DNA of 24,000 bases from Candidatus Moraniibacteriota bacterium (GTDB lineage Bacteria; Patescibacteriota; Minisyncoccia; Moranbacterales; UBA1568), in assembly GCA_043743535.1 (NCBI GenBank), contig JAYTWI010000021.1:1-24000 (forward strand), in the 5' to 3' direction. This document shows positions 2,453-14,581 of this stretch, piece by piece. The notes under the pieces are model-generated. The model saw nothing but the letters and a program-made list of their open reading frames with translations, did no database searches and was not told the origin of the DNA. The position numbers and the translations under genes were made by a program. Numbering within the stretch: the stretch's first letter is position 1; each line of letters opens with the position of its first letter.

Positions 2453-3388
2453 ATGACGTGGGTTTTGGTGGCGCTTCTCGGATATTTTTTCAATGCCGTT
2501 TCAGCGCTTTTTGATAAATTTCTTTTGTCTGATCGAATAGGAGCACCAGTCGTCTATGCTTTTTTCGTCTCCCTTTTCAGTCTGTTTGCACTTTTTTTTA
2601 TTCCGTTTGGTTTTCATTTTGGCGACTTTCGAAACTCGGGTCTCTTGGTGTTTTCCGGGATGCTTTTTATTTATGGGCTGGTGGCATTTTACTACGCGGT
2701 CAAAAACCACGAGGTTTCCCGGGTGGCACCGCTTCTCGGAACAGTAGTATCGCTCGTGGGCTTTGGGGCGGCATTTCTTCCGGGAAATATTGATGGCAAC
2801 ACGCTCAGCGTTTGGTCATTTTTGGCACTGGTTTTTCTCATCATTGGTGGTCTACTCATCTCTTTTGATTTACCATTGCGCAAAGGTGAAACGATTTCCA
2901 AACTCGTCTTGATCGCTGGCCTTTTCATCGGAGTTTCTGCTGTTTTATTGAAATATGGTTACGGGCAAACCAATTTCGTGAGTGGTGTGGTATGGCAGCG
3001 TTTCGGGATGTTTTTGGGGGGCTGTAGTCTCCTCCTCACACCCTCTTTTCGTCAGCAGATTTTTGACCAGTTGGCACATTTTTCTCAAAAGCCAGCCCGC
3101 GCCAGGAGTACGGGCTTGTTCTTTGTGCTCAATAAGGTATGTGCTGGAGTGGCAGCTTTTCTCATTTCTTACGCCACTTTCCACGGCTCTGTTTCCTTTG
3201 TCCAGGCTTTAGCCGGTATGCAGTATGTTTTCATTCTCCTCTTGGCCTTTCCTCTCGTGCGGTTGTATCCGGATATCTATCAGGAGAAGCTCTCCTTGTT
3301 TGACTGGTTACAAAAAGCCGGGGCGGTGGTGCTCATTGGAATCGGGCTGTGGCTTATGACTACTCATGGTATTAAAATACTTTTATGA
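2453..3388 (+). CDS. polytopic membrane protein, EamA/DMT-like
   Basis: 311 aa that are almost entirely hydrophobic helices (about 10 TM segments), arranged as two similar halves like drug/metabolite transporter proteins. The stop overlaps the next start (ATGA at 3385-3388). Confidence 0.55.
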   Translation: MTWVLVALLGYFFNAVSALFDKFLLSDRIGAPVVYAFFVSLFSLFALFFIPFGFHFGDFRNSGLLVFSGMLFIYGLVAFYYAVKNHEVSRVAPLLGTVVSLVGFGAAFLPGNIDGNTLSVWSFLALVFLIIGGLLISFDLPLRKGETISKLVLIAGLFIGVSAVLLKYGYGQTNFVSGVVWQRFGMFLGGCSLLLTPSFRQQIFDQLAHFSQKPARARSTGLFFVLNKVCAGVAAFLISYATFHGSVSFVQALAGMQYVFILLLAFPLVRLYPDIYQEKLSLFDWLQKAGAVVLIGIGLWLMTTHGIKILL

Positions 3389-4419
3389 TGAAGATGTATA
3401 CTTTTTTGAAAAAATTTTTCAAGTGGCTAGGGTACTCCCTTTTGGGGGTTTTAGGTCTCGTACTTCTTCTTTTTGGGTATTTTAATCTGCCAGGGCCAAC
3501 GCCGCGAGAAGACGTGTCTTTGGGGATGACTTTTTCCTCCCGTTACGCTACGGGGCTTGGGCTTGATTGGAAGGAAACCTATCTCGCGTTACTCGATGAT
3601 GTCGGCGTTAAAAAAATGCGCCTGCCAGTCTATTGGGACCTCGTAGAAAAAGACAAGGGAACCTATGATTATGCTGATGTAGATTGGCAAGTGGCTGAGG
3701 CGCACAAGCGTGGGGTGGACGTCATTTTGACGGTCGGCCTGAAGGTGCCACGTTGGCCAGAATGCCATATTCCGAATTGGGCTAATGAGAATGAAACCGT
3801 GCGTCGTAAGGGTATACTTCATTTTATTATAGAGACGGTAAAGCGGTATCAAAATGATCCGACGGTCAGTACCTGGCAGGTGGAGAATGAGCCCTTTCTC
3901 CCCTTTGGTATTTGTCCGGCTTTCGATGTTTCTCTTCTCGAACAAGAAGTGGCACTGGTGAAAGCGATGGATCCTACTCGGCCAGTTTTGCTGACAGACA
4001 GCGGCGAGCTTTCGCTGTGGTTGGGGGCTGCCAGTCGGGGTGACAAATTTGGGACGACGCTTTATCGTGATATTTATAGCAAAAAAGTGGGCGGTTATTT
4101 CACCTATCCGATTGGGCCGAATTTTTTCCGCTTCAAGGCTTGGCTGGTGAGAACTTTTACTCATCAGAATAATTTGATAGTGATTGAACTTCAGGCTGAA
4201 CCGTGGGCTAGCGGTTGGGTGGTGGACGTGCCACTTCTGGAACAATTTAAGACCATGAATGAAAACAAATTGCGCGACAATGTCCGTTATGCCAAGCAAG
4301 TGGGCTTTTCAGAAGTGTATTTGTGGGGTGGAGAGTGGTGGTATTGGATGAAGACTAAAAAGGATTATCCGGCCGTCTGGGAGGCGGGCAAAGAATTATT
4401 TCACGAACATGCACAGTAA
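3385..4419 (+). CDS. membrane-anchored glycoside hydrolase, clan GH-A (GH5/GH42-like TIM barrel)
   Basis: N-terminal TM helix (WLGYSLLGVLGLVLLLFGYF), then MRLPVYWDLVE...GVDVILTVG...WQVENEPF, where NEP is the catalytic acid/base motif of clan GH-A enzymes. Translationally coupled to the upstream membrane protein. Confidence 0.6.
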   Translation: MMKMYTFLKKFFKWLGYSLLGVLGLVLLLFGYFNLPGPTPREDVSLGMTFSSRYATGLGLDWKETYLALLDDVGVKKMRLPVYWDLVEKDKGTYDYADVDWQVAEAHKRGVDVILTVGLKVPRWPECHIPNWANENETVRRKGILHFIIETVKRYQNDPTVSTWQVENEPFLPFGICPAFDVSLLEQEVALVKAMDPTRPVLLTDSGELSLWLGAASRGDKFGTTLYRDIYSKKVGGYFTYPIGPNFFRFKAWLVRTFTHQNNLIVIELQAEPWASGWVVDVPLLEQFKTMNENKLRDNVRYAKQVGFSEVYLWGGEWWYWMKTKKDYPAVWEAGKELFHEHAQ

Positions 4420-8421: not shown

Positions 8422-8823
8422 TGGTGGAGTTGATGGGAATTGCACCCATGTCCAGAGCAGTTTTTTCAAAATATTCTACAAGCGTAGTCAGCTTTGGGTA
8501 AATGCATGAGGTAGAAAGCAGACAAAATCCGCATACATTCTTTTCTTTGGCAATACGATCACAGAGGGTAAAGAAAAAGAAATACTCTGGTCACGTCTCG
8601 ATAATATGACACCGGAGATTCTTTATCGAGAATCAAGAGTCCGATGGCGACTCACAATTAAGCGAGTGCGAGAGCGAAAGAAGGAGCAAACGCTTGCGCG
8701 AATGCATTCTTTGCCTTGGTGATGAAGTTTGCATTTATCATCGTGAGAAGGATATTTACGACCATCTCCTCAAGGTCGGCTTGCCTATTTTGAAAGTACA
8801 GCCTGTCGAGTCTAAGCAACCCC
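8422..8823 (-). ncRNA. ssrA: tmRNA (transfer-messenger RNA)
   Basis: The minus strand starts GGGGUUGCUUAGACUCGACAGG (compare the conserved GGGGnUGAuUcuGGAUUCGACGGG). It ends GGACAUGGGUGCAAUUCCCAUCAACUCCACCA, which is a T-arm, then an acceptor 3' strand complementary to the 5' GGGGUUG with a G3-U70 pair, then an encoded CCA. It contains an internal tag frame and sits directly downstream of smpB. Length is 402 nt. Confidence 0.9.
8658..8732 (-). other. tmRNA tag-peptide reading frame (ANFITKAKNAFAQAFAPSFALALA, then stop)
   Basis: After ...GAUGAUAAAU the frame reads GCA AAC UUC AUC ACC AAG GCA AAG AAU GCA UUC GCG CAA GCG UUU GCU CCU UCU UUC GCU CUC GCA CUC GCU UAA. GCA AAC is also the E. coli resume sequence. 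The exact resume codon could be a later in-frame GCA. Confidence 0.6.
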
Positions 8824-8834
8824 ATTTTGGAAAA

Positions 8835-8862
8835 TTTTTCATTTCCAATTTTTCATTTCCAA
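8835..8862. repeat. perfect 14-bp tandem duplication (tttttcatttccaa x2)
   Basis: Units are 8835-8848 and 8849-8862, in the 72-bp spacer between the smpB stop and the ssrA 5' end. On the minus strand each unit carries TTGGAA, a possible -35 for ssrA. Confidence 0.85.
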
Positions 8863-8895
8863 TGTATTTGAAAAGGAAAAATTGTGAATGGAATA

Positions 8896-9339
8896 TTATC
8901 CTCGCATAGCACGCTCTATCCGACGCTTGGCTTCACGCTTGCCTATATCAGCCCGACGGTCATATTCTTTCTTGCCACGGCCTATCGCAAACTCTAGTTT
9001 GACAAGTTGCTTCTTAGTATACAACCGAATAGGGACGAGTGTCAAGCCTTCTGTGCGGTATTTTCCGATGAGAGAGCCGATTTCCCGTTTGCGTAACAGG
9101 AGCTTTCGTGGCCTACTATCTTCGTGCTTGGTGTCACGGTGGGCCTGGGCATAGCGAGGGATCAGAGCATTGGTCAAGTAGAGCTCACTTCCTTTGACCG
9201 TGACAAAGGCGCCTTTCAGGCTGGCATGGCCTGTTTTGACGCTTTTTACTTCAGCACCAGTCAATACCAAACCAGCCTCGAAGTGTCCTTCCAGAGCGTA
9301 ATCAAAAGTGGCTCGTTTGTTCCTGGCGATGGTTTTCAT
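8896..9339 (-). CDS. smpB: SsrA-binding protein SmpB
   Basis: MKTIARNKRATFDYALEGHFEAGLVLTGAEVKSVK...LLLRKREI...GRGKKEYDRR is canonical SmpB. Start moved from track 9408 to ATG 9339, the usual M..IA.NK.A..DY N-terminus. Confidence 0.93.
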   Translation of the reverse strand: MKTIARNKRATFDYALEGHFEAGLVLTGAEVKSVKTGHASLKGAFVTVKGSELYLTNALIPRYAQAHRDTKHEDSRPRKLLLRKREIGSLIGKYRTEGLTLVPIRLYTKKQLVKLEFAIGRGKKEYDRRADIGKREAKRRIERAMRG

Positions 9340-9401
9340 AGGCTTGTAGCACCCGTACTTTCCCACATTTGGCTCAAATAAGCAAGCAATTGCGAAAAGT
9401 A

Positions 9402-9430
9402 TTGACATAACAGGTTAGATATGCTATAAT
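9402..9430 (+). promoter_or_regulatory. consensus sigma70 promoter facing the GC-rich island
   Basis: TTGACA (9402-9407), a 17-nt spacer, then TATAAT (9425-9430), with a TGn extended -10 at 9422-9424. Both hexamers match the consensus exactly. The predicted transcription start is near 9437, about 225 nt upstream of ORF A. Confidence 0.6.
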
Positions 9431-9520
9431 TAAAAAATAATTTGAGGTGGTGAAATATCCCTTAAATTATGGAAATTGTTCTTTGATAAACGAGATTTAG
9501 CGAAAAAAATTCTCTTGTTC

Positions 9521-9627
9521 TCCTCTCTTCGTGAGTAGCACAGTGGATGTCTAAAAAGATTTCTAGTATGCTACTCATGTCGAGGAGCCCTTAATGCGGG
9601 GATCGCATTATTTCACGCTCACGGCCA
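9521..9627 (+). repeat. structured leader module, copy 1 (upstream of ORF A)
   Basis: About 92% identical to 10828-10934 (8 mismatches and 1 indel by hand), with 61 nt identical (9529-9589). P1 is CTCTTCG/CGAGGAG (9525-9531 / 9581-9587). P2 is TGAGTAGCA/TGCTACTCA (9532-9540 / 9569-9577), with a 28-nt loop and a TGT bulge. A second hairpin is AATGCG-GGGAT-CGCATT (9593-9609). Confidence 0.85.
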
Positions 9628-9661
9628 CAGGCCACGAGCAAGAAAAAACAGGAGAAAGAAA

Positions 9662-10660
9662 ATGGAAAGTCTTCAATATTCAGACGGAATCGGTTCCCGT
9701 GGACGGAACCCGTTTCTTCTCTTAGTGAAAGGAGATGAAGTTATCGTCTTCCGCGGACAGAGCATTCCCGGTGTGGTAGTGGTGCGAGGCACCGACTACA
9801 CCAAGAATGGTAAGTGGTCGCACACCACTTACCGGCTCCAGTTGGCGGACGGAATCCGCCACATCGTGGGACGGAATGGCTGGGAAACTAGTCGCTTCGT
9901 GGAAGGACTCGCTTTAGCGGTTGGTTGTGCTACGCCCGACACGTGGGCGGACACGGCCAAGGCGTTAGGGATTTCGGTTCCGAGCGCGATGGAGTTCTTG
10001 CGGAGCTGGAGGCAGCAGGAGGCCGAGAAGTTGGACGAGATCGAGCAGTCGTTGGCGAAACTCGAGGAAGTTTCCAAAAAGAAAACTGACTCGGTGATCG
10101 TCACGGTAAGCTTCGGCTCGCCGACCAATCACGCCGTGCGAGAAGGCTACTGGGAATCCCCCAAGTCTATCCCCGGCTACAACGCGGAGATTCGTAAGAT
10201 CGACGCGAGCGGAAGCTGGATCGAGGGGAACATCGTGGTTATCGGGATTTCCGGCACCGTTCTCTCTGTCAAGTACTCGTCCGGCATGCACGGCGGATAC
10301 TACGGAGTCTCCGTCGGGGTGATTCCGGGAACGGAAACCGAGATCCCGCCTTTCGAGACCGCCCGTGAAAAGGCGGCGACGGAAAGCGGACTGCCCAAGA
10401 ATCTCTTCCGAGCCTTCAACGGCGACGAGGAGCGAATTCGCGAGTTCATGGCAAAGGTCGCAAGACTGGATGCCGGAAAACTCGACGAGCACGAGTTCTC
10501 GTGCGGTCGGGCACGCAAGAGCGCGGAAGTGATTCGCGTCTCCGGCGACCTGGAATTCTTCCTCGGTGCTGATCCGTTGGAAGTTTGCGGGTATATCGAG
10601 GAGGTTCACTTCCCCTCGAACGCGCCCAAGACTTCCGACCCCCGAGGCCTCGTCGGCTAG
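9662..10660 (+). CDS. hypothetical protein, no recognisable family (ORF A, 332 aa)
   Basis: AGGAG at 9650-9654 lies 7 nt before ATG 9662. It is a long ORF in a GC-rich stretch with no signal peptide. A central coiled-coil-like segment reads WRQQEAEKLDEIEQSLAKLEEVSKKK. Confidence 0.6.
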   Translation: MESLQYSDGIGSRGRNPFLLLVKGDEVIVFRGQSIPGVVVVRGTDYTKNGKWSHTTYRLQLADGIRHIVGRNGWETSRFVEGLALAVGCATPDTWADTAKALGISVPSAMEFLRSWRQQEAEKLDEIEQSLAKLEEVSKKKTDSVIVTVSFGSPTNHAVREGYWESPKSIPGYNAEIRKIDASGSWIEGNIVVIGISGTVLSVKYSSGMHGGYYGVSVGVIPGTETEIPPFETAREKAATESGLPKNLFRAFNGDEERIREFMAKVARLDAGKLDEHEFSCGRARKSAEVIRVSGDLEFFLGADPLEVCGYIEEVHFPSNAPKTSDPRGLVG

Positions 10661-10751
10661 TGGTAACACCATGCTCGGCGACGCACTCCGCAAAGCCGAA
10701 CTCCGCTAGTCTCGTATTTCCAGCTTGAGGGTCTGGATTAACAAAACCCTC

Positions 10752-10802
10752 TCTGTTTCGGAATGTTTATTCCGACTGATGAGCTCAAAAGAGCGAAACA
10801 GA
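10752..10802 (+). ncRNA. type III hammerhead self-cleaving ribozyme motif
   Basis: 5'-UCUGU U^ UCGGAAU-GUUU-AUUCCGA CUGAUGA GCUC-AAAA-GAGC GAA ACAGA-3'. Helix III is 5 bp (10752-10756 / 10798-10802). Helix I is a 7-bp hairpin (10758-10764 / 10769-10775). Helix II is 4 bp (10783-10786 / 10791-10794). The cores CUGAUGA (10776-10782) and GAA (10795-10797), plus A15.1-U16.1 and G10.1-C11.1, are all present. The cleavage triplet is GUU, with the cut predicted after 10757. Confidence 0.8.
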
Positions 10803-10827
10803 TTGCACTTTGTAAAAAATAAGTTTT

Positions 10828-10934
10828 TCCTCTCCTCGTGAGTAGCACAGTGGATGTCTAAAAAGATTTCTAGTATGCTACTCATGTCGAGGAGCCTCGG
10901 TGCGGAGCACGCATAATTTCACGCTCACGGCCAA
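10828..10934 (+). repeat. structured leader module, copy 2 (upstream of ORF B)
   Basis: Same module as 9521-9627. P1 is CTCCTCG/CGAGGAG (10832-10838 / 10888-10894). P2 is 10839-10847 / 10876-10884. The one P1 difference from copy 1 (U to C) turns a G-U pair into G-C. The second hairpin keeps 5 pairs, including a G-U. Confidence 0.85.
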
Positions 10935-11055
10935 CCTACCCGCCACCCTCAAATTGCAGAGTGTTCGGATTCAAATGGGAACTTATGGAACGCTCGACAC
11001 AGTTCTTTCGATTCATCTATCGGCTCAGTTTCGAGCCAACAACTGGAGCAGCTCT

Positions 11056-11604
11056 ATGTCAAAGATTTCCGCTTCCTTTATTGCCGCTGTGGGTTTCTCA
11101 GCTATCTCTCTGGCGGCCTCCTCGGTCTGCGCGGCAAAAACAGAAAGCGCTCCGCTCTCGCCTGTCATCAGGGTGGAAGTCCAGGGGAAAGATATGATGT
11201 TGGCTCAAATGGGCAGGGACGGCGAGCCAATGATTCATGTCTTTGCTCGGTCTCCCAACCAAGCTGACGGCACCGAGCAGCTCTTTCGCAAGATCACTGC
11301 CGTGCTGCTGGGCAGTGGCTATCAGTGGAGGGGCAGCGACCAGTCGCTTGACAAAAACATTTGGTGCAAGGTCGAGACGACTTCCGTCCCGATGAAGGTA
11401 TCTTCGAAGGTATCTTCCCCGGCTGCCCTTGTGGCTGATGTCAGCTGCAACTTGAAAATCAGGGAAGGTAAATCGAACGACAAGACCCGCGTCATAAGGC
11501 TTGTCCAGTTTGGGTCTGGACCCAATCTCGACGACGGGGTGGCTCTGATTCCGGGGCTCATTGCCGAAGCCTACGCCGAAGCGCAACGGCTGACGGCGAA
11601 ATAG
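11056..11604 (+). CDS. hypothetical secreted or membrane-anchored protein (ORF B; alternative GTG start at 10900)
   Basis: GGAG at 11045-11048 lies 7 nt before ATG 11056. The N-terminus MSKISASFIAAVGFSAISLAASSVCA-AKT looks like a signal peptide. The frame is also open upstream to GTG 10900, inside the repeat module. Confidence 0.6.
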   Translation: MSKISASFIAAVGFSAISLAASSVCAAKTESAPLSPVIRVEVQGKDMMLAQMGRDGEPMIHVFARSPNQADGTEQLFRKITAVLLGSGYQWRGSDQSLDKNIWCKVETTSVPMKVSSKVSSPAALVADVSCNLKIREGKSNDKTRVIRLVQFGSGPNLDDGVALIPGLIAEAYAEAQRLTAK

Positions 11605-11636
11605 TAGGCGCAATCGCCAAATCGTCCAGCTAACCG

Positions 11637-11670
11637 CCGGGTACCACATGATGGTGCTCGGCTTTTTTCT
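11637..11670 (+). terminator. rho-independent terminator closing the island
   Basis: CCGGGUACCA (11637-11646), loop CAUGA, UGGUGCUCGG (11652-11661). This gives 10 pairs, including two G-U, followed by CUUUUUUCUUU. Confidence 0.8.
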
Positions 11671-12853: not shown

Positions 12854-14581
12854 ATGATGGTCTATATGGATGAAAATATTCACGAAAAATTAGGACGCGA
12901 GATTGAACGAATAGCTAACGAGCTTATTGCTAGCAAAGTTGGCGAACACTATCTTGTTGCTGACTCAGTTGAACTTGTTGCTGACTCAGTTGAACGATCA
13001 TCAAACAAAATTTTTGGTGATTATACCAGTAATGTTGCTTTGCTTATTGCTGGTCGTCTGAGAATGTCTCCGCAAGACGTTGCGGCTCTCATGAGAGAGA
13101 AGTTTTCTCTTCCAGAAATTGAAAAGATCGAAGTGGCTGGTCCGGGCCATCTGAATTTTTTCTTGAGTCAGGAATTTTTTTCACGTACGGTGGAGGATAT
13201 TCTTGAACAGAAAAAACAGTACGGAAGTTCGTCTATAGGTATTGGAGAAAAAGTGAACAATGAATTTATTTCAGCCAATCCAACTGGACCACTTCATCTC
13301 GGGAATGCGCGTGGGGGATTTTATGGCGACGTACTTTCCAATGTCCTGCGTAAGATGGGTTACGAAGTGACGAATGAGTATTATGTGAATGACGCGGGGG
13401 AGCAAATTATAAAGTTAGCCCATAGCGTACTCAAAGACAATGAAGCAGTATACAAAGGTGATTATATTGATCAGATTGCTAATGAGCTTGCGGGAGAGAT
13501 CAAACAACGAATAGAAATTGTGAGGCCCTATAAAGATAGTGATGCTTTAGAGTATGTGATAAATTTTTTGTTTCCCATTGGTAGGGCGGTGACTGATAAG
13601 ATTTTGAGGAACTATATTGAACCGACAGTGAAAGAGAAAATGAGAGTTCATTTTGACAGTTGGGTGCGTGAAAGTTGGTTTTATAATAGTAGTAATCACA
13701 AATATAAAGGTCAGATCAGTAGAGCAATCAAAATCCTAATCGAAAAAGGCCTTACCTATAAAACGGATGACGGTGCTCTCTGGCTTAAAACAACGGACTT
13801 TGGTGATGATAAGGATCGAGTTTTAGTGAAACGCAAAGACCTTTATAAAAATAAGACCTATTTTGCTGCAGACTGTGGCTATCTGCTTTATAAAATTGAA
13901 AACAACTTTGATCTCTTAATAGAAACCTGGGGCGCAGATCATCATGGGTATATTAACCGTTTTAGGGCAGCGGCCGAGATGCTAGGTTTTAATCCAGAGA
14001 AAATTCGTTTCAATATAGTACAGTTGGTTAGACTTGTGAAAGATGGACAGGAGGTCCGGATGTCGAAGCGAGCCGGTAACGTGGTGACGATTGATGAACT
14101 TATCGAAAAAGTTGGGCATGATGTAGCGCGGTTCTTTTTCTTGATGTATGCCCCAGAAACGCATATGAACTTTGACCTCGGGCTGGCCGAAGAGCGTTCG
14201 CAGAAAAACCCGGTTTTCTATGTACAGTATGCTCATGCGCGTTTGTGCAGTATTTTACGCAAAGCAGAAGAAGAAAAAATTTCTTTCACTCAGTCTGATT
14301 TAGCGCTTCTGACGCACGAAAAAGAACGCGAGCTGATGCGGGAGCTATCATTTTTTCCCGAGTTGGTGGCGACTATCGCCTTAGAGTACACCGTGCACAA
14401 ACTGCCCCAGTATGCTATCCGACTTTCCGACAAATTCCATTCATTTTATGCTGCCTGCAAAGTGATCGACGCGGGGAACCCTGCCTTGACGGCAGCGCGG
14501 TTAGAGCTGATTGGGGCGACACGGATTGTTTTGGCAGAGACACTCATGCTTATGGGCATTGCCGCCCCGGAGAAAATGTAA
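12854..14581 (+). CDS. argS: arginine--tRNA ligase
   Basis: Contains SANPTGPLHLGNARGG (HIGH-type motif), GADHHGY, MSKRAGNVVTI (KMSK-type motif) and a C-terminal anticodon-binding domain ending in M. The start could be ATG 12854, 12857 or 12866. Confidence 0.95.
   Translation: MMVYMDENIHEKLGREIERIANELIASKVGEHYLVADSVELVADSVERSSNKIFGDYTSNVALLIAGRLRMSPQDVAALMREKFSLPEIEKIEVAGPGHLNFFLSQEFFSRTVEDILEQKKQYGSSSIGIGEKVNNEFISANPTGPLHLGNARGGFYGDVLSNVLRKMGYEVTNEYYVNDAGEQIIKLAHSVLKDNEAVYKGDYIDQIANELAGEIKQRIEIVRPYKDSDALEYVINFLFPIGRAVTDKILRNYIEPTVKEKMRVHFDSWVRESWFYNSSNHKYKGQISRAIKILIEKGLTYKTDDGALWLKTTDFGDDKDRVLVKRKDLYKNKTYFAADCGYLLYKIENNFDLLIETWGADHHGYINRFRAAAEMLGFNPEKIRFNIVQLVRLVKDGQEVRMSKRAGNVVTIDELIEKVGHDVARFFFLMYAPETHMNFDLGLAEERSQKNPVFYVQYAHARLCSILRKAEEEKISFTQSDLALLTHEKERELMRELSFFPELVATIALEYTVHKLPQYAIRLSDKFHSFYAACKVIDAGNPALTAARLELIGATRIVLAETLMLMGIAAPEKM
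12953..12994 (+). repeat. perfect in-frame 21-bp tandem duplication inside argS (LVADSVE x2)
   Basis: cttgttgctgactcagttgaa occurs at 12953-12973 and again at 12974-12994. Confidence 0.95.

Follow-up and report, generated by a model that had tools for sequence, protein, structure and literature searches.

The window analyzed here is a stretch of 24,000 nucleotides (nt) from a Candidatus Moraniibacteriota bacterium, and the character of its gene content is that of a housekeeping stretch of a Patescibacteria genome. Within it, a module of 107 nt occurs twice, once ahead of an open reading frame (ORF) that we call ORF-A and once ahead of another, ORF-B. Going from smpB onward, one passes a promoter, the first copy of the module, ORF-A (9662–10660), the second copy, ORF-B and, ultimately, a terminator-like hairpin; between ORF-A and copy 2 sits a hammerhead ribozyme, absent from the first account of this sequence (the original prediction), in which the module had been read as a riboswitch-like or protein-controlled switch. 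On the 3' side of the module region follow genes for a TrhO-like rhodanese, ArgRS, IleRS, RecO, and TGT, and the GC content is 55–59% between smpB and the rhodanese gene versus 40–50% in the flanks. What is this module, and how did it come to stand before two genes? Here, we argue that it is probably the structured front end of genes that travel in ribozyme-bounded cassettes.

The Duplicated Module and Its Relatives

The two copies share a perfect run of 61 nt (9529–9589 = 10836–10896) with zero mismatches—2 matches in the window versus 0 in 100 dinucleotide-preserving shuffles—and over 107 nt, they agree at 98 of 108 aligned columns, exactly the duplication that had been described. Both fold into two helices, P1 and P2 (z = -6.2 and -7.1), with no shuffle folding as well, and the one difference within P1 (U9528 versus C10835) turns a U.G pair into C-G, again as had been noted. 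The 28-nt loop that the same fold was said to carry is mostly paired, with UGGAUGUCU against AGAUUUCUA (using G.U), and what had been taken for a direct repeat within it (GAUGUCUA/GAUUUCUA) is simply the two strands of an imperfect P2 helix. In other words, P1 is a helix of 6 base pairs (bp), and P2 is a stem of about 20 bp with bulges of 1–3 nt, a tip of variable length, and an apical loop of 4–5 nt; H2, farther downstream, has 6–7 bp. The repeat had been located correctly, but the homologous unit is longer than the repeat, with copy 1 extending to 9642 and with a promoter and elements resembling boxB and boxA upstream of it (Table 1).

A leader of about 125 nt, homologous to the module, recurs upstream of ORF-A homologues and again, after a hammerhead, before a second and different gene. 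Covariance model R1, which was built from 13 leader copies, has 24 strong plus-strand matches in 16 loci, all of them loci found through ORF-A homology, and our counts of leaders cover such loci only. Covariation is plainly present among these further homologues: in the leader alignment, paired cells make up 92.3%, changes on both sides are seen for 30 of 40 pairs, and 0 of 500 shuffles do as well, with slid controls on the same alignment at 35–50% paired. Folding of single sequences yields the same helices as the covariance alignment, and two loci (L004 and L010) retain P1 and P2 despite almost wholly different sequence. As judged from these alignments, covariation supports the helices P1, P2, H2, and P4.

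The last of these, P4, of which the original prediction makes no mention, follows the pattern GCYC-AC-(variable hairpin)-AC-GRGC, which is built from the conserved motifs UUCACGCYCACGG and CCACGRGCA, and in all leaders, its invariant and symmetric AC/AC internal loop sits between helices that covary. Among 22 distinct leaders, the end of P4 lies 3–7 nt (median 4.5) before the Shine-Dalgarno (SD) sequence, and the spacing from SD to AUG is mostly 5–8 nt. P4 is kept even in those ORF-A leaders that lack P1, P2, and H2 (L002, L005, L020, and L041).

On which strand does this structure live? The plus strand of copy 1 folds at -31.9 kcal/mol versus -23.5 for the minus strand, and G.U pairs are frequent in P1 and P2; together, these assign the structure to the RNA of the coding strand, so that the plus-strand RNA structure of the original prediction holds up under folding, G.U pairing, and covariation alike. 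P4 alone is strand neutral, because on the opposite strand, the invariant AC/AC positions would form tandem G.U pairs, and there the minus-strand hairpin is even the stabler one (-18.6 versus -12.9 kcal/mol).

Copy 2 is incomplete. It breaks off at 10934, inside P4, and has neither the 3' strand of that helix nor an SD sequence; in relatives, its counterpart goes on through the rest of P4 to an SD and a further gene of the cassette type. Across the loci, the genes behind the leader are ORF-A, ORF-C, a Csx23-like gene, and a 500-amino acid (aa) ORF and, by accident, ORF-B.

Rfam 15 at its gathering threshold has no match to the leader at 9517–9642 or 10824–10934, and with E up to 5, it returns noise-level matches only, of about 18–19 bits each, that touch the edges of copy 1 (IS128 at 9422–9525 and the mgtC leader at 9639–9694). 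The exact 24-nt loop pattern has no match in representative genomes or viral contigs. Eleven matches of the P4 pattern in viral contigs were set aside as chance, lying inside GC-rich coding sequence without an SD and scoring at most 18 bits with R1. By sequence comparison, then, the module is a conserved, structured plus-strand RNA, the 5' leader of a Patescibacteria cassette family, and as far as could be found, it is a structured RNA without a prior description, without an Rfam family, and without a report alongside ribozyme clusters.

The first leader of an array has a front end of its own. The promoter has a spacer of the island type and is conserved ahead of first-in-array leaders in L006, L015, L021, and L044; the boxB/boxA-like part stands only ahead of the first leader of an array, with none before copy 2. 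The boxA-like consensus before first leaders is GYUCUUUGAUAA. In Escherichia coli rrn operons, boxA is UGCUCUUUA and is placed after a boxB stem-loop (PMC2724277). Against that sequence, which may not be the consensus of these hosts or of Patescibacteria at all, UGUUCUUUG of the window agrees at 7/9, as does AGCUCUUUG of L021 and L029, the GCUCUUU core of the latter agreeing at 7/7. We would call this likeness, a matter of letters, a resemblance only.

Table 1. Coordinates of the features discussed, with the leader copies first (positions in the window)
Feature	Position	Strand	Basis or remark
Leader copy 1, complete	9517–9642	+	Covariance model R1, 141 bits; covariation; single-sequence folds
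Copy 1 P1	9525–9530/9582–9587	+	
Copy 1 P2 hairpin	9531–9578	+	
Copy 1 H2	9592–9598/9604–9610	+	
Copy 1 P4a	9617–9620/9636–9639	+	AC/AC internal loop
Copy 1 P4b	9623–9626/9630–9633	+	
Leader copy 2, 3'-truncated	10824–10934	+	R1 match 10824–10946, 89.5 bits; alignments with relatives
Copy 2 P1	10832–10837/10889–10894	+	
Copy 2 P2	10838–10885	+	
Copy 2 H2	about 10898–10916	+	
Copy 2 P4, 5' half only	10923–10932	+	
Shine-Dalgarno AGGAG of ORF-A	9650–9654	+	Unpaired in folds, outside every conserved helix
ORF-A start AUG	9662–9664	+	
ORF-A	9662–10709	+	332 aa to stop at 10660; conserved C-terminal tail in +1 frame
Candidate H-type pseudoknot	10720–10751	+	CCAG 10720–10723/CUGG 10733–10736 interleaved with GAGGG 10727–10731/CCCUC 10747–10751
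Type III hammerhead	10750–10804	+	Rfam RF00008, 39.8 bits, E = 1.5e-6 (2.4 kb searched)
Hammerhead stem III	10752–10756/10798–10802	+	
Hammerhead stem I	10758–10764/10769–10775	+	
Hammerhead stem II	10783–10786/10791–10794	+	
Hammerhead core	CUGAUGA 10776–10782; GAA 10795–10797	+	
Predicted cleavage site	after U10757	+	
Sigma-70-type promoter	9402–9430	+	TTGACA, 17 nt, TATAAT; TG before -10; 12/12 consensus match
boxB-like stem-loop (AAUUUGAGG ... CCUUAAAUU)	9439–9468	+	Conserved; pairing-preserving changes GAGG/CCUU versus GGGG/CCUC
boxA-like motif UGUUCUUUGAUAA	9477–9489	+	Invariant alignment block; GCUCUUUGAUA in L021 and L029
Island (inserted or replaced relative to syntenic relative L067)	9390–10996	+	Alignment with L067
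ORF-B	11056–11604 (most likely)	+	Resident gene; signal-peptide-like N-terminus
Intrinsic-terminator-like hairpin	11636–11662	+	11-bp stem, then T-run; closes transcription unit
tmRNA gene	8422–8823	-	Rfam 115 bits, full length; long insertion in tag region
smpB	8896–9408	-	

Ribozymes, Cassettes, and an Inserted Island

In loci fetched with ORF-A relatives, the motif CUGAUGA...GAAA turns up repeatedly just 3' of the gene, and in the window, it belongs to a type III hammerhead. The Rfam model RF00008 aligns end to end at 10750–10804 with every core nucleotide present: C3-U4-G5-A6-N7-G8-A9, G12-A13-A14, the pair A15.1-U16.1 (A10798-U10756), and a non-G at H17 (U10757). The layout is that of three helices around the core, stem III being open and the other two stems capped by loops. 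Among 18 examples aligned by MAFFT, which is naive to structure, the core columns vary little or not at all, and pairing reaches 99, 97, and 92% in stems I, II, and III, with 12 of 16 pairs changing on both sides; slid controls on that alignment fall to 38–46%. Because the core is complete, because a hammerhead follows the ORF-A homologue in more than 20 loci, and because the stems covary, we accept 10750–10804 as a hammerhead, predicted from its sequence to cleave after U10757. The literature searched, which does not take in most subscription journals, had no relevant paper on hammerheads in Patescibacteria or the candidate phyla radiation, nor on hammerheads together with Csx3.

Directly 5' of the ribozyme is a candidate pseudoknot, kept in close relatives, with 69–89% of the cells paired and little covariation. 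It would form the 3' end of a cleaved ORF-A messenger RNA (mRNA), and in L033, another sequence has, by eye, the same apparent topology. A helix between GAGGAG and the CCCUCUCU tract, which lies upstream of the ribozyme, was likewise judged by eye and is unconvincing (5/6 pairs, with one mismatch).

Some assemblies end where these elements lie. A 1182-nt Logan contig (SRR23617269) equals window positions 9573–10754 exactly, starting in the 3' strand of P2 and ending 3 nt before the predicted cleavage site, and many ORF-A homologues are on contigs of 1.1–1.3 kb. Contig ends of this type could reflect branching of the assembly graph at conserved leader and ribozyme sequence or, should the library be a metatranscriptome, true ends of RNAs.

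ORF-A itself represents a large orphan protein family of Patescibacteria, with 175 close homologues (Patescibacteria wherever named) and 624 representative clusters in a profile search. It has no match in Pfam, PHROG, PADLOC, or NCBIfam, and its AlphaFold2 (AF2) model, with a predicted local distance difference test (pLDDT) score of 86.5, has no detected RNA-binding fold or structural relative. In the window, the family tail GNTMLGDALRKAELR* is encoded in the +1 frame at 10662–10709, beyond the stop at 10660, and this copy therefore has a frameshift or a premature stop near its end, by decay, sequencing error, or recoding. A 67%-GC viral contig (IMGVR_UViG_3300042340_000394) encodes a distant relative, 52% identical over residues 4–220 (the N-terminal and middle domains), so the ORF-A domain occurs outside Patescibacteria too; that contig has neither leader nor hammerhead.

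The order of parts in an array is leader, ORF-A, pseudoknot-like element, hammerhead, leader, and second gene, and a leader-gene-ribozyme-leader-gene succession is found in L003, L012, L013, L015, L021, L033, and L044. As the second gene, L013, L015, L021, and L044 have an orphan ORF of about 307 aa, L012 has a Csx23-like gene (1370–1756; PADLOC 1.3e-22), and L003 has an ORF of about 500 aa. L033 goes on to further hammerhead-separated genes, among them an AAA ATPase and a DHH hydrolase of the "CorA-associated" CRISPR accessory family (8533–9768; PADLOC 8e-54). L004 has two Csx3/Crn3-like genes (3223–3573 and 524–871; PADLOC 5e-23), and one ORF-A N-domain (P0263) is fused to Cas_VVA1548. Neither the window nor any of the fetched loci was found to have cas genes or CRISPR arrays. 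In L004, L019, and L033, type III hammerheads lie on both sides of ORF-A, with a spacing of 1419 nt in L019; an RNA released from such a doubly flanked unit would have complementary stem III strands at its two ends, the arrangement that permits circularization in viroid-like RNAs and retrozymes.

How the window came by these parts can be read from a syntenic relative, the contig of L067, which has the HAD hydrolase, SIMPL, and then smpB in common with the window. There, only a spacer of 181 nt, which has its own promoter, separates smpB from the ORF-B homologue; neither ORF-A nor a leader was found on that contig, and there is no hammerhead motif in the spacer. The alignment holds to about 9389 and resumes from 10997. 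With smpB next to ORF-B in L067 and neither ORF-A nor leader between them, the window evidently carries a GC-rich insertion or replacement of about 1.6 kb beside smpB and ahead of a resident ORF-B. This island contains, in order, the island-type promoter, the boxB/boxA-like signals, leader 1, ORF-A, the pseudoknot-like element, the hammerhead, and a second leader that is cut off after 111 nt. The 62 nt at 10935–10996, between the truncated leader and the upstream region of ORF-B, match neither the leader family nor L067.

ORF-B has a single homologue (P0122) in 5.8 billion proteins, that same neighbor of smpB in L067, and its homologue is found in no array locus. Since ORF-B is resident and the leader came with the insertion, the placement of copy 2 ahead of ORF-B is an accident and does not speak for shared regulation. 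The genes downstream of the two copies had been called unrelated, which is correct, but in the window, they are so merely because the insertion put a truncated leader in front of a resident gene. A similar island is present in L006 in a different neighborhood, before prfB, where the second leader breaks off earlier, inside P2.

The GC content of ORF-A is 58% in the window (window mean, 48%) and 58–64% across hosts whose flanks have 34–52%, the ORF-A protein is about 80% identical between metagenome-assembled genomes labeled Kaiserbacteria and Saccharibacteria, and islands occupy differing gene neighborhoods across loci. Foreign composition together with such identity between the two labels marks the cassette as horizontally mobile between Patescibacteria genomes. 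One promoter and one terminator enclose ORF-A and ORF-B; a promoter-like site was looked for between the two genes and none was found, and the only terminator found is the one after ORF-B.

Two other features of the window touch none of this. ARAGORN reports no transfer RNA or transfer-messenger RNA (tmRNA) across the whole 24 kb, although Rfam detects the tmRNA gene at 8422–8823 on the minus strand, and within the ArgRS ORF, a perfect 21-nt tandem duplication at 12953–12994 (CTTGTTGCTGACTCAGTTGAA x2) doubles the heptapeptide LVADSVE near the N-terminus.

What the Leader May Do

We favor, at a probability of roughly 60%, the reading in which the module is the conserved and structured 5' leader of a family of gene cassettes that have hammerheads at their boundaries and are mobile among genomes of Patescibacteria. 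Structure, strand, and conservation across the family, like the position relative to SD and ribozyme and the history of insertion, follow from the comparisons themselves; the role is the inferred part, and most likely, it is that of a 5' end structure and translation platform for mRNAs released by a ribozyme. That is, a single transcript would run from the promoter at 9402–9430 to the terminator at 11636–11662, and the hammerhead, to judge from its sequence and family membership, would cut it after U10757. Cleavage would free an ORF-A mRNA with a 2',3'-cyclic phosphate end just past the pseudoknot-like element, and the downstream RNA would start with a 5'-OH, followed by ribozyme hairpins and then a leader, which would thus be a uniform front end on each released mRNA. 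P1 and P2 (about 26 bp, bulged) with H2 may act as a protective or processing structure at the 5' end, possibly as a substrate of an RNase III-type enzyme: such substrates need at least about two turns of double-stranded RNA, and the 6 bp of P1 stacked on the 20 bp of P2, with bulges of 1–3 nt, provide them. P4, always 3–7 nt before the SD, might arrange the ribosome-binding region. Copy 2, because it lacks the 3' half of P4 and an SD, would be a relic and at most a 5' hairpin of the ORF-B message.

Several points weigh against this reading. Both self-cleavage in vivo and a stabilizing or translational effect of the leader are things that we infer from sequence. The hammerhead scores 39.8 bits, less than the curated Rfam gathering threshold of 48.5, its score being lowered because its loops are short. 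The structural alignment of the leaders was fitted to a model, which favors pairing, and the loci were all reached through ORF-A. The further hammerhead cassettes of L033 do without this leader, which is therefore not required for ribozyme processing. Finally, two invariant parts, the basal sequence of P2 and the AC/AC loop of P4, point to a specific binding partner, and a pure stabilizer would have no need of one.

That last point leads to the main complementary rival, in which the leader is an operator for a common trans-acting RNA-binding protein—encoded by the host or by a cassette (for example, ORF-A)—that controls translation or decay of all cassette genes. Invariant nucleotides do lie within covarying helices (basal P2 GUGAGUAGC/GCUACUCAU; the AC/AC loop of P4 with flanking UUCAC and CA(A/C)G), the same leader stands ahead of at least four unrelated genes, and P4 abuts the ribosome-binding site; against this, no candidate binding protein was identified, ORF-A having no detectable RNA-binding fold or structural relative, and the basal P2 sequence is altered in L004 and L010. 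We consider the operator rather unlikely, but it is compatible with the leader as a front end of released mRNAs and may add to that role rather than replace it. We regard as less likely still a junction that works as DNA, either an attC-like recombination site folded from single-stranded DNA or a portable block of homology for swapping cassettes. The anatomy is suggestive (outer helix, unpaired spacer, bulged inner helix, and tip of variable length), the module is located between mobile cassettes of foreign composition, each of the two known island ends lies within a second leader (in P4 at window position 10934 and within P2 in L006), and the 61 identical nt of the window copies suggest recent conversion or duplication. 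Yet there are no GTTRRRY/RYYYAAC core sites, an integrase or recombinase was found neither in the window nor in most loci, the points of truncation differ between islands, orientation and spacing to SD and start codon are fixed, and the G.U pairs and covariation reach into H2 and P4, two helices for which an attC-like model has no use.

The switch of the original prediction now looks improbable. It held that P1 hides an SD-like GAGGAG belonging to a short ORF (AUG 9594 or GUG 10900) and that an alternative helix, UCGUGAG/CUCACGG (9529–9535/9618–9624), opens P1 in response to a ligand or protein. In the subfamily of GAGGAG type (15 of 23 copies), an AUG or GUG does follow GAGGAG by 5–7 nt, and the alternative helix is complementary in 88% of cells versus 31–50% in slid controls. 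But elsewhere, the 3' strand of P1 is GUGGC, GGGUGGC, CAGC, or AUCUUGG with compensating 5' strands, the fold persisting without GAGGAG or start codon; both supposed starts lie in the 5' strand of H2, where other subfamilies have GCC, CCG, GTC, TCG, or nothing; and changes in H2 are compensatory and nonsynonymous, with neither the length of the small ORF nor its frame relative to the downstream gene being kept. The alternative helix covaries no better than shuffles (which do as well in 77 of 500 cases for pairing and in 80 of 500 for covariation score), and its 3' partner is fully explained by P4, which covaries and persists where P2 is absent or differs in sequence. The real SD, AGGAG at 9650–9654 ahead of the real start AUG 9662, lies outside every conserved helix, there is no multihelix junction with conserved unpaired nucleotides and no Rfam match, and the downstream genes have no common function. 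The original prediction is thus partly supported: its RNA structure was right, and its occlusion of a ribosome-binding site and its riboswitch were not supported, the comparative data appearing to have largely refuted the switch already. Least probable of all is that P4 and its 3' flank (a hairpin and then ACGRGCA) imitate the repeats of type III CRISPR systems and serve as an RNA decoy or as a site for Cas6-type processing in arrays whose genes interact with type III CRISPR signaling. Here, the attraction is in the company that the leader keeps, with array partners that match Csx23, Csx3/Crn3, and the DHH "CorA-associated" hydrolase and with the ORF-A N-domain fused to Cas_VVA1548. Staphylococcal type III-A CRISPR RNAs begin with ACGAGAAC (PMC5389561), and P4 is followed by ACGAGCAA; that apparent likeness extends to only 6/8 nt, the leader has no match among the Rfam CRISPR-DR families at E up to 5, and, as said, no CRISPR arrays or cas genes were found in the fetched loci or the window. 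We favor the leader of ribozyme-delimited cassettes over all three of these—DNA-level recombination, the switch, and the CRISPR-repeat mimic—as the less likely explanations.

One might still join the parts in a bolder and, we think, quite unlikely picture: mobile arrays that interfere with or plug into the cyclic-oligoadenylate signaling of type III CRISPR systems, with hammerheads releasing the genes, doubly flanked RNAs becoming circular, and the leader (P4 with ACGRGCA) mimicking a CRISPR repeat to recruit or decoy Cas6/Csm-type proteins. If this were true, the module would represent an RNA element of a new class, one that connects CRISPR biology with the processing by ribozymes. Other candidates were discarded. 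Mimicry of the 5' end of 23S ribosomal RNA (rRNA) by the P2 loop (ACAGUGGAUGUCU versus ACGGUGGAUGCCU) involves a stretch that varies freely among homologues; the window has no genes or tandem arrays that match an IS200/IS605-type end, a diversity-generating retroelement, a retron, or a CRISPR array; and for a single-strand promoter hairpin, the stem is too short for -35 and -10.

Known Systems and What Is New

Why might this matter? Bacterial hammerheads that flank genes have been known since 2011, and what they are for is still unclear; this family is a compact and well-defined example. With a strong promoter, boxA-like signals, ribozymes at the boundaries, a standard leader, an empty site, and dozens of natural variants, the end requirements of ribozyme-cut mRNAs become testable. 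The little-studied Patescibacteria also gain a structured RNA and a large family of orphan proteins, and the repeated links of the arrays to type III CRISPR accessory proteins hint at defense or counterdefense, which, if confirmed, would make the cassette family considerably more important.

Several known systems resemble the leader in part. In phage T7, RNase III sites in the early region are related internal-loop hairpins repeated between unrelated genes of one polycistronic transcript, and their processing leaves stable ends; our arrays differ in that they appear already to hold a ribozyme of self-cleaving type for the cutting. The lambda nutL/N leader and the leaders of rRNA operons share the succession of promoter, stem-loop, boxA-like UGUUCUUUG / GCUCUUUGA, long imperfect hairpin, and SD. 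In those systems, the hairpin is processed by RNase III. Here, boxA matches at 7–8/9 only, and the boxB/boxA-like part stands ahead of the first leader only. Riboswitches and leaders that sequester a ribosome-binding site are likewise conserved structured 5' leaders on the coding strand near a start codon, but the present leader has no conserved junction or pocket, its true SD is free, no function links its genes, and the SD and start once claimed occur in one subfamily only.

Integron attC cassettes are small, mostly single-gene promoterless units, co-oriented behind one promoter, with imperfect hairpin repeats that have variable tips, and all of this sounds familiar. Unlike attC, however, neither copy is flanked by R'' RYYYAAC and R' GTTRRRY sites, the module ending in CUCUUC ... 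GAGGAG; there is no integrase among the ORFs of the window and near one locus only a weak sub-threshold rve match; and each gene has the repeat on its 5' side, at a constant distance from the SD and with the behavior of an RNA structure, and a ribozyme marks the boundary of the unit. Retrozymes and viroid-like circular RNAs come to mind for the units of about 1.4 kb in L004, L019, and L033, which lie between two type III hammerheads whose stem III strands could join the ends. In contrast to those RNAs, these are chromosomal DNA loci with ordinary-looking proteins and without a reverse transcriptase or replicase, and since the window has a single ribozyme, no unit is excisable there.

The closest precedent is the set of clusters described by Perreault et al. 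in 2011, in which multiple hammerheads flank single genes of varying identity in prophage-like regions and were proposed to cut transcripts into gene-length mRNAs (PMC3088659). There as here, a mobile region has co-oriented genes that vary in identity and are separated by a type III hammerhead, and the proposed role is the same. The hosts here are Patescibacteria, the cassettes have housekeeping genes as neighbors and no phage genes close by, and a conserved structured leader of about 125 nt, not described there as far as we found, comes after the ribozyme. The hammerhead class and gene clusters punctuated by ribozymes are, then, already known; what is new is a covariation-supported leader after the ribozymes, a boxA-like front end, a setting in Patescibacteria with an empty site, and recurrent partners that resemble accessories of type III CRISPR systems.

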